Shown in pieces: positions 9,001-15,000 of a DNA stretch of 20,832 nucleotides (position 1 is the stretch's first letter; each line of letters opens with the position of its first letter). The DNA comes from a virus (Duplodnaviria; Heunggongvirae; Uroviricota; Caudoviricetes). The stretch lies in IMG/VR virus record IMGVR_UViG_2529293138_000009, positions 1 through 20,832 of that record; one strand, 5' to 3'. A program made the position numbers.

Positions 9001-12000
9001 GCTCTGCGTTGGCATAACACAAATCTGTCTGTCCGTTTGGGTAAAGAGCGGATATCTGCAGTTTCAAAGAAACTGCGCATGCGCACGAACTATCAAAGAT
9101 AGTGATAACTGAGATAAAAACATATGGAAGCCTTCGGCATTTAAAAATAACAGCAAATCATATAAAAGGAAAGAGATAAGCAACATTTACATAACATGTA
9201 TCACGATACGCCCCAGTGTTAATAAAAGGACTATCACTTTATTCTTTTATAATGTTAGTTTGCACTAGCAAGTGCCACTCCGAACAGAAAAAGGATACAT
9301 GTAATGAAGCTACAGCAATTTAATGTTAAAAATTACAAGTCGATAAAAGATGAAATAGAAGTATATATCGATGATATAGTTGTGCTAATTGGTCCAAATA
9401 ACTCTGGAAAGTCAACAATATTAGATGCGTATGAAAAGTTTGCATCTTTAGGATCAGCAAAAGGCCTGACTGCTCATGATTTTTATAACTCAGATATATC
9501 TATACCAATTGAAATGTGCGGAATTTTCACTGATATCACTGATGATGATATTCGTACATTAGGGGGAGAGAAATGGTTTTATAAAGATGATGCTCTTGAC
9601 AGAAGAAATATGGCAAGAAAGTATGGGGGAGATTGGGAGAAAAATAATACACCATTGGAAAGCAAACTCTATTATTGTGTTAAATGGGTTTGGTCACATC
9701 CAGAAAAAGCAGCCCAAAAACAATCCTATGGCCTTGATGATGCCTCTGGCAAACGCATATTTATTGATGGGGGCTCTGGGGGACTTGACACACTACTACA
9801 AAGCCGAGTTCCTCAACCAATAAGAATAAGCCCAGATAAATCCATGGATGAAACTAAAAAAATTATCATAAGTTTCTTAAAGGAAGATGCAAAAGATGAG
9901 TTACTGAAAACAGGGGAAAGTAAAGCTGATATAATACAGAAAATACAAGAGTTGACAGACACTCTTATGAAAGATTCCAAATCAAAAATCGATGATCTTC
10001 TACAGCAGGTCTCCAAATCATCATCATCTGTTTTTCCTGGGCTAGAACTGGAATTAAACATACTTTCCAAGGATCCCGTAGATGCGGATGTTATGGTTTC
10101 AGAATCTAACCTTACAGTGAAAATGGATGGGATAAATAGCTCTCTTCTCGAGAACCAAGGTCACGGTGTTCGCCGCTCCGTTTTATGGTCTGCTTTGCAA
10201 ATTTTGACTCACGAATCTCATGCACGAGATAAAATAAAAAAAGCGAAAGGTAAGCCTATCTCTGTTGAGAAAAAACAATATATTTTATTGATTGATGAGC
10301 CTGAATCATTTCTTCACCCTCCTATAATTAGAAGTGCGAGGGACTCGCTTTATGATTTTGCAGCAAACAATGATAACTGGCAGGTGATGGCTACAACACA
10401 CTCCCCTGTATTCATAGACTTATCCAAGAAGCACACGACTATAATTAGGATAGAAAAAGACAAATCTCTAAATAAAACAATATCTACAGATGAACTATCT
10501 TTTTCTGAAGAGGAAAAAGATAATATGAAAATGATAAGATTATGTAACCCAATGGTTAATGAGTTTTTCTTTTACGACAATATAATATTAGTTGAAGGCC
10601 CAACTGAAAAAATCGTCATTAACAAAATATGTGATATTGTCGGAGTTGATTATCATATAATTGACTGTTTAGGAAAAGGGAATATAAAAACATTTGCTAA
10701 AATATTAAATCAATTTAACGTTGAGTATATAGCAGTACATGACTCCGACATTCCAAAATGCTTAAAGCAAGGAAGCGTTTCAGGTAATGGAGCATGGGGT
10801 TCAAATGTATCCATAATGAACGAATGCTCTAAAAGTAAAAAACCAATGGTATTTATTCAAATACCTCATTTCGAAGGACTGTTTTTTAAAAATTTCAATC
10901 CATCAAACAAAGTTGAAACAGTAACATCAGTTCTATCTAATAATTTAACACCAGAATATAAAGCAATTTTTGATACATATAGCAGAATCTTAAACAAAGA
11001 TCCATCTGTTTTTATCAGCTCCAACGAAAAAATGATAGACATGTATCATGTATTTTATGCCAGTAATAAAAACCAAATTGAAACGCTAAAAAATCCTGAA
11101 ATCTGGATCCTTTAATTTTTAATGTTGTAATAAATATTATTTAGTAACAACCCTCTATTGAGGGTTGTTTTTAATCATAAGAAATCTGACACACTCTATC
11201 ATACTAAAAATAACACAACATGCATACAAAGTGTTTATATGCATAGACATATTACCTCACATCTGAGTCAATACACTTTAATTTCATTTACCGAACCAAT
11301 TTCTTATTACTGGCATGATAAAAGTTCAACACACGCCGCATAACTTCGCTCTTCCGGCACTCGCGACAGATTATGTTTAGACGCCTGTCATAGCGACGTA
11401 TTTCTCCGTCAGGTAATGACCAGATAAGGTCCGGATCAACCACAACCGGTTTCTTCAGCTTTGCCCTCGATAATTTTTTGCGGGCATTTTGCCAGTCTTT
11501 ACGAGCCTGTTCAGACGGGAATAACCCGTAGCCAGAATTGTATACATCGCCACTGGCAACCAGCTCTCTGGCGAGAACACTCATCAGATATCTTGTCGCA
11601 CCTGTTTTCGCTTCCAGTTGTCGTAACGTCTCGCGCCCTCTCTGGCGCACGAGTTCAACAACCTGCCTCTTAATTTTTTCCCGCTCTTCTTGTGTAAATA
11701 CTTTTGCCACAAGTCCTCCTGAAAATTACCTCATGACCTGAAATAAACACTTACCCCCTGAAGCCCGGTGGAATTTCGGTATCCGGTTCAGAAATATGAT
11801 TCACACAACGCTGGTTGTTCGTGCCGCTTACCGGGAGCAGCCAGGGGTTTTCAAAATTCCGGTCCGGTCCAAAAAACGTCGCCGCTCGCTGAACAAATTC
11901 CGTTCCCGTTTTCCCGGTAGCCGCCAGGTATCTTGCGTAACGCCTCACGCCATCCAGCATGGCCTCTGGTGACACCCCCTCGCGTAATCTGGCCTTCCAG

Positions 12001-15000
12001 GCACTGAAAGCGGATTTCTTCGGGTTTGCCCCAGCACGCAACGGGTATTCCCGCCAGACCTGTTCGAACACATCCGGATAATCCACTCGTCCCACAGGCT
12101 GCCCGGTGTTTTCCGGGACTACCCGATCGGCTTCCCGCTGAATGGCGGAATCGGCTTCAGGCTGCTGCAGTTGGTGTGATTGCTCCGGCCTTGCGGTCAT
12201 CACCTGCTGCACAGCGCCCGAATCGGCTTTCAGCGCATACGCTGAATCGGCTTCCGGTGTCGTGCCTGCTGGCTGACCAGGATTGACGGTCTGAACATCC
12301 CCTGACTGGTTCGTGGCGTTTTTTACGCCATGGACCATAGTGTTTTGATCTTCTTTATCTGTATCTTTATCTGTATCTTTATCTGTCGTGACTCGTCGTG
12401 ACATGTGCGTGACATTTCGTGACGCGCCGTGACAATCGCCATTTTGTTCCCGCTTTCTTTCCCTCTCTCGCTGCGCCCTCTTGCGCTCTGCAGGAGATTT
12501 TGCGGTTTGCGAAATATTGCCGTTGTCCTCTTTCAGCACCTGGCGTTTTTCCCATCCAGTGATTAAATCACCATCAAGTACCCGCCACTGCATCGTCTGC
12601 AAAATTGAATCAATTACCTCTTCTGTCACGTCGAGCGCACTTGCCAAATCTTCTGTCGTGACATCAATGTGACCTCGCGTGACATTTCGTGACGCGCTCA
12701 CCAAGAGGTGGATATACACTGCCATCACTGTTGCAATTGGCTGCCCTGACACCCTGGCAATTGTTCGCCACTTAGGGTCATTTGGCATGTCATGCCATAA
12801 TCTGAGCCAGGCGTTAGCCATACTCACCTCTTCTGATACCGAATCTTTTTACTCACGAGTTGCCGGAAGCGATTCGATATGGCTATTGTCAGTCAATGTA
12901 CTGCCACAGCATTTCCTGCCGGGCCACCACGTTTCATCTGATTGAAACCGGCGATTGCCACTGCGACAAAATCATCAGCGTCTCTCACCAGTCGCTCCCG
13001 CGTCTCCACCAGTTCCCGAAAATAAGCTGAACTGTGGCTGCGCATTCTGGCCACCAGCAAAGGTGGCATTGCCTTTTCGATCGCTGGTAACAACGCCTGA
13101 ATTTTTTCAACAGCATCAGGGGTGTCTTTCTCCACCCAGCGGAAAATTTTCTGGGTATTACGAGCCAGGGCTTCCGGATGGCTGTCGTCGTACAGTTCAG
13201 GAAACGTCAGCCCCAACTCAAAATAAGCCCGGGTTATTTCAGCTGCCGGAACTTTTTCACCGTCCGGATGCGCCCAGACATTCATCGCCATGCGGATGTG
13301 TTCATGCTTGATTTTCATGAATCAACTCCATCAGATAAGCATGCACTACAATCACCTTCAGCATGAACTACATGTGTTTGCCCCAAACGAATGCCGCTCG
13401 CATACTCAGGCCAAATAAGCTCCCAATCATGGGGTCGTAGCTCCGCCCTACTTACTTGGCCTTCCGTCGCAGATTCGATCATAAGGGCGCGGGTTGGAGA
13501 TATAGCTGCTCGTCCAGACGCCATTTGCGATAAGTAAGATGGCGATACACCAAGTCTGGCCGCGAATTTCTTAGCATCACCAACCATCAATGATTTAATA
13601 AACTCTTTTAATGTCATACCTTCCTCGGTTTAGTGTTTTTTTGCGAGTTTAGTGTTTAATAAACCATTAAGTCAAGTATTTGCTTGTTTAGTGATTACTA
13701 AAGATAATTACCACATGCAAAAAAAAGAAATTCGCCGTTTACGTCTCAAGGAGTGGTTTAAAGATAAAACTCTGCCACCCAAAGAGAAGAGCTACCTATC
13801 TCAACTAATGAGTGGGAGGGCCTCGTTTGGAGAAAAGGCTGCCAGAAGAATAGAGCAAACATACGGGATGCCGGAAGGGTATCTGGATGCGGAATACGCA
13901 GAACAACCGGCAGTTTCTCCACCACATGCAGGGTTAACGTCTAATCAACTGGAATTATTGCAGATTTTTTCAGCCTTCCCTGAGGATGAGCAACGCCAGA
14001 TAATCAGCGAGTTAAAGCAGAAAAAAGAATCAATGGAAGATCTAATAGCGAGATGGATTGCGGCGCAAAAATGCCGCCGCGCCTGAGTTATAAAACCGGA
14101 GGAAACATGAATAGAGCCCTTTCACCAATGGTTTCTGAATTTGAAACCATTGAACAAGAAAACAGTTACAACGAATGGCTGCGTGCGAAAGTAGCAACGA
14201 GCCTTGCAGATCCGCGCCCAGCAATTCCCCATGACGAAGTTGAGCGCAGAATGGCAGAACGCTTTGCTAAAATGCGCAAGGAACGGAGCAAACAGTAAAA
14301 TGTTACCCGTGTTATGGCTTGAAAGCGCAGATACCGACCTAGATGATATAACTAGTTATATTGCTCGTTTCGACATAGATGCGGCTGAACGCTTATGGCA
14401 GCGATTAAGGGGTTGTGTGCTGCCGTTATCCGAACATCCGTATTTATACCCACCAAGCGACAGAGTACCTGGCTTGCGTGAGATTGTAGCCCACCCTAAC
14501 TATATAATTCTATACCGCGTAACAACATCAAGCGTTGAAGTAGTAAACGTGATCCACGCAAGACGCCAGTTTCCCTAACTTTCACTACCAATAGAAACAT
14601 AACAACCGCAACGACTTTATCAAAAGCGTTGTGTTTGTTACGCTCCGTGGTTTAGTTTTTACTTGACTTAAGTTTAATGTTTATTAAACTAAAAATACCA
14701 ACCCACCCCGCCCCACAGAATGCAGGGCAATACTTCGAGTTACCAGGCAGTGGTCAGGGGTTAAGTAGCCAGCCCGAGGCGTAAGAACATGACGGCAGGG
14801 TTCAACTTTAATAACTATGCAGCAGGTTTTTGTTCCGCTACCCCGGCGTTAAGGGGAAATTAGGTCAACATGGATACTATCGATCTTGGCAACAACGAAT
14901 CTCTGGTGCACGGCGTGTTTTCCAACCAGGACGGCACATTCACCGCGATGACGTATACCAAAAGCAAAACGTTTAAAACCGAAAATGGTGCCCGTCGCTG

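Follow-up and report, generated by a model that had tools for sequence, protein, structure and literature searches.

The replication genes of the window

The DNA analysed here, a stretch of 20,832 nucleotides (nt) comprising positions 1 to 20,832 of the IMG/VR virus record IMGVR_UViG_2529293138_000009 and referred to below as the window, is the early-to-lysis half of an E. coli lambdoid prophage, running from the integrase gene to Rz and covering the region of the replication genes in full. The prophage is of the Rac/Qin-like, Shiga toxin (Stx)-converting lambdoid type. Our subject is its replication initiator gene (11751-12827, minus strand), the product of which ends in a short peptide resembling the C-terminal tail of the host primosomal protein DnaT, and which is followed on the same strand by the gene of a small DUF977 protein (11288-11710). 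Protein families in the window were assigned from open reading frame (ORF) calls together with Pfam, PHROG, NCBIfam and PADLOC scans.

The initiator ORF opens at a GTG at 12827 and encodes 358 residues; annotated homologues begin MANAW..., and the true start is probably the ATG at 12821, which would give a protein of 356 residues. The product matches phrog_3729, 'replication initiation protein', over its full length (E 7e-255) and is 97% identical to proteins named 'phage replisome organizer' by PGAP; the homologue in phage Evi is annotated 'Primosomal protein I'. Directly upstream, in the same operon, lies a gene of the YdaT family, cII-like (12893-13318, minus strand; PF06254, phrog_163), and before it, as the first gene of the rightward operon, one for a Cro-like HTH protein of the YdaS family (13315-13617, minus strand; PF15943, HTH_3). 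With YdaS-like and YdaT-like genes directly upstream on the same strand, the initiator gene occupies the position after cro and cII that is typical of lambda O; no cognate loader or helicase gene was found downstream of it in the window. From its sequence we regard the protein as a lambda-O-type phage replisome organizer, presumably origin-binding.

In an AlphaFold2 model built on a 100-sequence alignment, the N-terminal part of the initiator (approximately residues 10-128; 12444..12800, minus strand) is predicted to form a winged-helix domain, presumed to bind the origin, with predicted local distance difference test (pLDDT) values of 85-98. Foldseek matched this domain to winged helix-turn-helix (wHTH) proteins of the MarR/ArsR/CAP type, with weak E-values. 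A first-pass annotation of the window had pointed to phage replisome organizer models for the N-terminus, and the corresponding NCBIfam model TIGR01714 (phage_rep_org_N) did match, at E 0.015, a score under the model cut-off. A disordered, low-complexity linker (approximately residues 129-244; 12096..12443, minus strand; pLDDT 44-53) leads to a helical C-domain (approximately residues 245-333; 11829..12095, minus strand; pLDDT ~97) with the pattern YPxxFExxWxxYP...GVxRY...TFFGPDxxF; thousands of phage initiators share this domain, for which Pfam has no model. Searched with Foldseek against PDB, the whole model returned wHTH proteins for the N-domain only; the C-domain is a candidate DnaD-C-like helical module, distinct from the helical bundle of DnaT. 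A related-locus profile search with the C-domain returned only near-identical E. coli prophages and hence yielded no control set. The protein closes with the DnaT-type tail, R-C-V-N-H-I-S-E-P-D-T-E-I-P-P-G-F-R-G-COOH (residues 340-358; 11754..11810, minus strand), which is predicted to be flexible (pLDDT 54-82).

Two iteron clusters lie within the initiator gene, one of four copies of GTCAC[G/A] (12657..12693, minus strand) and one of five copies of GTCACG (12387..12433, minus strand), both with a spacing of 10-11 nt. Adjoining the iterons, an A/T-rich 12-nt unit, TCTTTATCTGTA, is repeated three times in tandem (12352..12387, minus strand) and codes for TDKDTDKD of the linker; by comparison with lambda ori it is a candidate unwinding element. 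The window contains 20 copies of GTCACG where 6.7 are expected, a number that none of 100 shuffles reached, and nine of the 20 lie in the initiator gene (eight on the coding strand and one on the other), in addition to one GTCACA in the first cluster. Every gene encoding this N-domain, be it from E. coli, Yersinia or Serratia, has iteron clusters at these same positions irrespective of loader type, and genes with other N-domains have none; in the diverged relative P0072, GTAACG repeats replace GTCACG. The iterons are read as codons, giving repeated Asn-Val-Thr or Val-Thr (...SRNVTHMSRRVTT... and ...NVTRGHIDVTT...), and the DNA repeats therefore shape an N-domain loop together with the beginning of the linker. 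Together, the iterons and the A/T-rich repeat bear the signature of a lambda-type origin situated within the initiator gene, to which the initiator would bind. A DnaA-box-assisted origin was also considered and found unsupported, the window having 18 near-consensus boxes against 22.6 expected and none of them at the iterons.

The first-pass annotation had described the downstream gene as encoding a small basic protein and no loader, and this description held. The 140-residue product has an isoelectric point of 10.4 and belongs to the DUF977 family (PF06163, E 1e-26; phrog_142), also known as LygF or 'Ren-like' protein; it has no AAA+ Walker motifs with a PF01695 match and no PF06992 match, and none was found in NCBIfam, PDB or PADLOC. 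Between it and the initiator gene lies a 40-nt spacer (11711..11750, minus strand) with a Shine-Dalgarno sequence, AGGAGG, for DUF977. Alignment to strain M1 places at this spacer the join where sister prophages have DnaC-like and DUF1627 genes, and the same +40 spacing recurs in 46 viral contigs. In M1, the initiator is 96% identical to that of the window and has the same tail; the gene of a DnaC-like ATPase (48% identical to DnaC) begins at +6 nt, and DUF1627 and then DUF977 come next. A simple recent deletion of the loader is not evident, since no clear homology links the 40-nt spacer with the M1 flanks. The suggestion that DUF977 stands in place of a loader is contradicted by the sister prophages, which have the initiator, the DnaC-like ATPase, DUF1627 and DUF977 in turn. 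DUF977 as a new kind of loader was likewise rejected, since it is without ATPase or P-like features and coexists with DnaC-like loaders; it would be an accessory gene of the module in the position of lambda Ren.

That the window has no recognisable loader gene, as it had seemed by eye, was confirmed by tblastn, in which references of the DnaC-like (three), DnaB-like (two) and P-like (one) kinds gave no match in the window, in phages Tritos and LLS or in the Evi region. Nor did a loader appear among the remaining ORFs of the window when these were scanned with Pfam and PHROG. As the prophage has neither a loader nor a helicase, helicase loading must depend on host proteins. The idea of a replication module that relies on host factors stands to that extent; nothing indicates that, among these factors, PriA or DnaT is recruited, as the first-pass annotation had it.

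Two observations concern the genes that follow such initiators. In several modules with a lone O-type initiator (L126, 3848-4336; L127, 3805-4329; L059; L122), a small YfdN/PerC-like protein (...RRAATVW...) is encoded directly after the tail-bearing initiator and holds the slot of DUF977, with no sequence similarity seen between the two. DUF1627 (L002, 4411-5124; L211, 3365-4081) follows the loader in modules of the DnaC type (strain M1) as well as of the lambda-P type (E. coli O157, P0070) and is therefore independent of loader type.

The C-terminal tail of the initiator

The C-terminal end of the initiator reads ...RCVNHISEPDTEIPPGFRG (also given as ...NHISEPDTEIPPGFRG and ...SGTNNQRCVNHISEPDTEIPPGFRG). 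BLASTP against K-12 DnaT aligned residues 334-358 with DnaT 155-179 at 15 identical positions of 25 (pairwise E 9e-08), so that the match to the C-terminal tail of DnaT noted in the first-pass annotation was borne out by alignment. In a phmmer search of PDB only DnaT chains were returned (6aep, 2ru8 and 9zbt; E 0.014-0.053), all of them through the tail. The NCBIfam DnaT model (NF002770) matched residues 335-358 at its positions 156-179 (E 0.0014), the score of 18.3 bits standing against a cut-off of 201 for full-length DnaT. The likeness is narrower than the "DnaT-like C-terminus" originally proposed: what is shared is a flexible tail of some 20-25 residues, whereas the PF17948 three-helix bundle of DnaT (residues 84-153), which binds single-stranded DNA (ssDNA), was undetected in the window initiator, and the globular C-domain is a different one. 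Neither BLASTP nor phmmer found any similarity between the initiator and DnaT beyond the tail, be it to the N-terminal oligomerisation domain or to the acidic PriB-binding linker. By these comparisons the similarity to DnaT is real yet confined to the flexible tail.

Twelve tail positions are near-invariant in 105 DnaT orthologues (R161, D162, N164, S167, P169, D170, I173, P174, G176, F177, R178 and G179), and the initiator keeps 11 of them, as R340, N343, S346, P348, D349, I352, P353, G355, F356, R357 and G358; the exception is D162, which is replaced by Cys. As a motif of 19 residues the tail can be written R-x-x-N-x-x-S-x-P-D-x-x-I-P-x-G-F-R-G-COOH. At the DNA level the tails of the initiator gene and dnaT are 62% identical and differ at many synonymous sites, which argues for selection on the peptide and not for recent DNA transfer; a recent capture of DNA from host dnaT was ruled out on the same grounds.

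The tail is found at the end of C-domains of the window type, of true DnaT-like bundles (L060, L075, L098, L097) and of Phg_2220_C-like domains (L068, L059, L122, LLS). YdaU of the K-12 Rac prophage, which has YdaV downstream, is also tail-bearing and ends in ...VNTVSLPDSAIPPGFRG. The tail is thus a portable module, carried on at least three different C-domains. Within the family of the window C-domain (P0121-P0268) it is present in 15 of 148 representatives. Other tails recur in this family after FFGPD, namely ...GESM.EY..RIQ..., ...H.GF..RDY..., ...LP[ED]W... and ...QNL...D.EEWQS..., of which only the last is tied to a partner, lambda P; the remaining types may be addresses for different helicase systems.

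Where a DnaC-like gene begins 2-6 nt further on, the final codon pair of the tail (11754-11759 in the window) is nearly always AGG GGG and then doubles as the Shine-Dalgarno sequence of that gene; loader-less forms mostly retain it. A role as ribosome-binding site for the gene that follows was rejected as the full explanation of why the tail is kept. Several initiators without a coupled downstream gene encode the final R-G by CGC GGT or CGC GGA, and the upstream positions R-19, N-16, S-13, P-11 and D-10, which lie outside the heptapeptide used for searching, are conserved as in DnaT.

In DnaT the tail is a flexible segment of 20 residues, the removal of which (DnaT 1-161) leaves a dimer instead of a trimer (PMC5778457). 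Deletion of residues 154-179 lowers ssDNA binding and cooperativity, and for dT30 the affinity of DnaT 84-153 is about 2-3 times below that of DnaT 84-179, its Hill coefficient being lower too (PMC4132743). These effects are what would be expected if the tail of the initiator were an intramolecular or self-assembly arm that serves ssDNA binding or cooperativity and stabilises filaments of the initiator on unwound DNA of the origin, with the globular C-domain or DnaA recruiting the helicase as in iteron plasmids. Among iteron plasmids it is normal for a replicon to encode an initiator alone and to rely on host DnaB-DnaC, a circumstance that also counts for such an arm. We nevertheless consider this explanation quite unlikely. 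The motif is acidic, rich in Pro and Gly and invariant in its G-COOH, features more typical of a docking peptide; being carried on three structurally different domains, it would have no single cognate surface; most members of the C-domain family lack it, and presumably they too need to stabilise an open complex; and DnaA boxes are not enriched near the iterons.

Tail and loader across phages and genomes

The contiguous join of initiator and DUF977 was found in 1540 of 5426 complete E. coli genomes (~28%) as well as in phages Evi, Tritos, vB_EcoS-813R8 and others. Among viral contigs with the C-terminal half of the window type, 69 of 78 were without a loader gene and 7-8 had one. Tritos has a complete genome of 46 kb with no loader or helicase, makes virions and forms plaques on MG1655 (PMC9928086). 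A survey published in 2025 (Genome Res, PMC12315714) lists LLS and 33 others as O-only lambdoid phages, the replication of which it calls "not yet understood"; with an O-type initiator alone and no helicase or loader, the window falls in the same class. In LLS, the prototype O-only phage, which has been grown experimentally and has no loader or helicase in its complete genome, O ends in ...VDTKIPEGFRG, and in the O-only phages mEp460 and ST64B the end is ...DYSQIP[A/T]GFRG.

The company of the tail was surveyed in two sets of loci. A scan of viral contigs for IPPGFRG followed by a stop codon gave 111 informative loci, in which the immediate downstream gene was DnaC-like at +2 or +6 nt (54 loci), DUF977 (46), DUF1627 (one) or another gene (10); a lambda-P-like or DnaB-like gene was found in none of the 111, anywhere in the locus. 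A scan of genomes, one per species, for PDxxIPxGFRG followed by a stop codon gave 120 loci, nearly exclusively from Enterobacterales. Cellular dnaT accounted for 82 of these, 81 with dnaC detected downstream and the remaining one in too short a locus. Of the other tail-bearing ORFs, some 36 in number, about 28 preceded a DnaC paralogue, with 45-56% identity to DnaC in the examples shown; for about eight no loader was detected, three of these being short loci or a chance match, and in none of the ~36 did a P or DnaB gene come next. The named hosts of tail-bearing phages are all Enterobacterales, the group having DnaT and DnaC.

Relatives that share the N-domain of the window initiator but have other tails are coupled to other systems. 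Relatives in Yersinia (P0112) and Serratia (P0071) with the tail ...LDCxEWQS..., and one in E. coli O157 (P0070) that has a true PF17948 domain and the tail ...EPLDSEE...DW.., are followed by a Phage_lambda_P gene; phiP27 and Stx1_699, in which a C-domain of the window type ends in ...SDKLTF, have DnaC-like and DnaB-like genes; and SaltyDalty, with none of the tails listed here, has a primase/helicase. Tails of the IPxGFR type are followed by an IstB/DnaC-type gene in P0072, P0042 and Klebsiella phi9.2 and by no loader in P0119. Across these sequences the loader system co-varies with the tail and not with the globular C-domain.

Two IMG/VR initiators, L041 and L097, combine a DUF1376-type N-domain with a true DnaT-like bundle and the tail, and in L041 a DnaC-like gene follows. 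Apart from the N-domain this layout matches that of the cellular dnaT-dnaC operon, which hints at a phage origin of the operon.

The same surveys bear on a further explanation, in which the association of tail and loader is mere genetic linkage and the loader-less module a decaying remnant that replicates poorly or with a helper. A remnant would fit the retention of the AGG GGG ribosome-binding codons in most loader-less forms, the presence of a loader next to the same initiator in strain M1, and the source of the window, a prophage that may not be viable. It is nonetheless very unlikely in our judgement, because the join is uniform (+40 nt) as well as frequent in genomes and contigs, and because complete phages with the loader-less join make virions and plaques. 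Moreover, the unrelated O-only modules of LLS, mEp460, ST64B and P0119 have variants of the tail with widely differing genes next to them downstream, R-G is retained where it is encoded by CGC GGT, and the association persists when the loaders are 45-56% identical, as it also does in the cellular dnaT-dnaC operon.

A possible route of helicase loading

We propose that the winged-helix N-domain of the initiator would bind both GTCACG iteron clusters within its own gene, beside the A/T-rich repeat, and that the disordered linker would connect it to the small, putatively DnaD-C-like helical domain and then to the flexible tail. The tail would be a portable docking peptide for a DnaC-type loading complex, that is, for DnaB with either host DnaC or a phage DnaC paralogue. 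In sister prophages it would hand over DnaB jointly with the phage DnaC-like ATPase; in the window prophage the near-DnaT tail would capture host DnaB6-DnaC6 directly at the opened origin. The phage would in this way mimic the loader-engaging part of DnaT rather than recruit DnaT itself, and a loader of its own would thereby become dispensable. Such origin-bound mimicry of DnaT, capturing host DnaB-DnaC, is the overall reading that we prefer, and we give it an even chance of being correct. It is favoured by the company of the tail, which is a DnaC-type loader or no loader and in no case lambda P or a phage helicase.

Several points weigh against this proposal. A cryo-electron microscopy (cryo-EM) study of 2026 suggests, by analogy with DnaA, that recruitment may fall to the N-domain of DnaT (PMC13377028). 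The tail may instead serve DNA binding or self-assembly, given that loss of DnaT 154-179 weakens ssDNA binding and that DnaT 1-161 is dimeric. The DNA of the tail lies 2-6 nt from the DnaC-like gene, and the association could in part be linkage in mosaic exchange; the AGG GGG codons of the tail are, besides, the ribosome-binding site of the loader gene. The samples consist mostly of related Enterobacterales prophages and are phylogenetically non-independent. Phages of the phiP27 type, finally, have a DnaC-like loader and lack the tail, which is therefore not required by every DnaC-family protein.

The cryo-EM structure places the contact of DnaT with PriA on the globular C-terminal domain and that with PriB on the acidic linker, gives the tail no role, and leaves the recruitment of DnaB/DnaC by the preprimosome as something that "remains unknown" (PMC13377028). 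In an alternative, which takes up the idea of the first-pass annotation, the tail would dock on PriA or on PriA-PriB; the initiator would then nucleate a PriA-dependent primosome at the opened origin, and host DnaT and DnaC would load DnaB. The C-terminal peptide of SSB, DDDIPF, binds PriA, and the acidic stretch of the tail with its I-P...F is loosely like it; the hosts, too, are those with PriB and DnaT. This peptide is quoted in PMC4129139, and DnaT is itself a partner of PriA and PriB (PMC13377028). The mapped contacts, however, lie outside the tail, and a peptide for PriA should ignore the type of loader, yet the tail never accompanies lambda P or a phage helicase and very often directly precedes a DnaC paralogue. 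Docking on PriA is accordingly an explanation that we rate as unlikely.

Capture of host DnaB-DnaC by a DnaT-like tail can be extended into a joint reading of the phage and cellular genes, which we offer tentatively and consider somewhat doubtful as a whole. According to it, the tail of DnaT engages DnaB-DnaC on behalf of PriA-PriB-DnaT, and enterobacterial phages copied the tail to origin-binding proteins as a 'loader address'. There would then be a tail code, in which IPxGFRG leads to a DnaC-type or host loader, the acidic LDxEEW type to lambda P, and other tails to phage helicases. The dnaT-dnaC operon would be a domesticated phage pair of initiator and loader that lost its origin-binding domain.

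The module can be compared with several known systems. Like lambda O at ori-lambda, the window initiator follows the cro/cII position, has a wHTH N-domain and has iterons with an A/T stretch inside its gene, and its C-terminal part must deliver DnaB; unlike the lambda O and P pair, it has no P gene and carries a DnaT-type tail, whereas P-paired relatives carry a different, acidic and aromatic tail, ...EPLDxEE..W... The ydaS-ydaT-ydaU-ydaV-ydaW series of Rac shares with the window YdaS-like, YdaT-like, initiator and DUF977 genes, and its YdaU is likewise tail-ended; the differences are the DUF1376 N-domain and the DnaC-like YdaV located 6 nt after YdaU, for which the window has no equivalent. 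With E. coli DnaT the initiator shares the 19-residue motif at the near-invariant positions except D162, and in the dnaT-dnaC operon, as in the sister prophages, a tail-bearing gene stands immediately before a DnaC-family gene. DnaT is, however, a fork-restart factor and the window protein a presumed origin-specific initiator that lacks the N-domain, linker and bundle of DnaT.

Among O-only phages, LLS resembles the window in its lone O-type initiator, the absence of helicase and loader and the IPEGFRG end, and differs in its HTH_36-like N-domain and Phg_2220_C-like C-domain. Tritos, which carries the initiator of the window, is in the phage panel of PMC12315714, a study that gives no mechanism for O-only phages and makes no mention of DnaT. 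DopC of Cellvibrionales and Oceanospirillales likewise joins a lambda-O-like N-terminus to a DnaT C-terminal element; unlike the window initiator it is chromosomal and is paired with the lambda-P-like DopE, and the structure with which it was matched is that of the DnaT C-terminus, 2ru8 (PMC5509034). The protein family, its 'Primosomal protein I' label (RAST-style), chimeras of O and DnaT (PMC5509034) and O-only phages are thus already on record. In the limited literature collection consulted, we found nothing on DnaT-like proteins in phages and no earlier description of a tail shared by O-only initiators and DnaT or of the sorting of tails by loader.

The Rep proteins of iteron plasmids (pSC101 RepA, R6K pi, RK2 TrfA) combine one initiator and iterons with recruitment of host DnaB, with DnaC. 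The window is like them in its lone replicon-encoded initiator, its iterons and its presumed use of host DnaB, and unlike them in having no sequence relationship and no evident DnaA boxes; to our knowledge a DnaT-type tail is not a feature of these Reps.

The remainder of the window is that of a lambdoid prophage. On the plus strand are a divergent DicA/RacR-like repressor gene (13652-14086; phrog_5736, NF007257), a prophage toxin-antitoxin pair adjoining it that consists of a PaaA2-like antitoxin (PF21217) and a ParE-family toxin (PF05016; 14053-14578 for the pair), exonuclease VIII (17074-19545) and the integrase (19807-20832). An OLD-family AAA+/TOPRIM nuclease gene (9304-11115, plus strand; 603 residues; PADLOC 'Old', E 9e-73) adjoins DUF977 downstream on the opposite strand; it lies in an island of low GC content (~0.33-0.37) and is probably a defence moron, and Evi, Tritos and M1 have other genes at this site. 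The minus strand carries an ImmA-like pair (7431-8269), DUF968/HNH (5669-6718), RusA (5285-5656), a Q-like antiterminator (4924-5295), an ORF of a PHROG family without annotation (3955-4779), holin (1358-1657), endolysin (462-995) and Rz (1-480). No tRNA gene was found across the whole window. Between the Q-like antiterminator and the holin, also on the minus strand (1942-3177), lie the Stx genes, stxA-like (2221-3177; 318 residues; phrog_866, E 4e-173) and stxB (1942-2211; 89 residues; PF02258, E 6e-47), and the loader-less replication module therefore belongs to an Stx-converting prophage.

O-only phages make up about 10% of lambdoid phages, and they include the Stx prophage of the window and a module that about 28% of the complete genomes of E. 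coli carry. A single peptide of 20 residues makes two stated unknowns testable, namely how O-only phages load the host helicase and in what way DnaB-DnaC is brought in by the preprimosome. If the tail is a docking site for the DnaC complex, this would explain why a phage DnaC paralogue is dispensable and would offer a handle against the replication of Stx phages, on which Shiga toxin production depends. If the tail binds another partner, the comparative pattern would still mark it as a portable functional motif.

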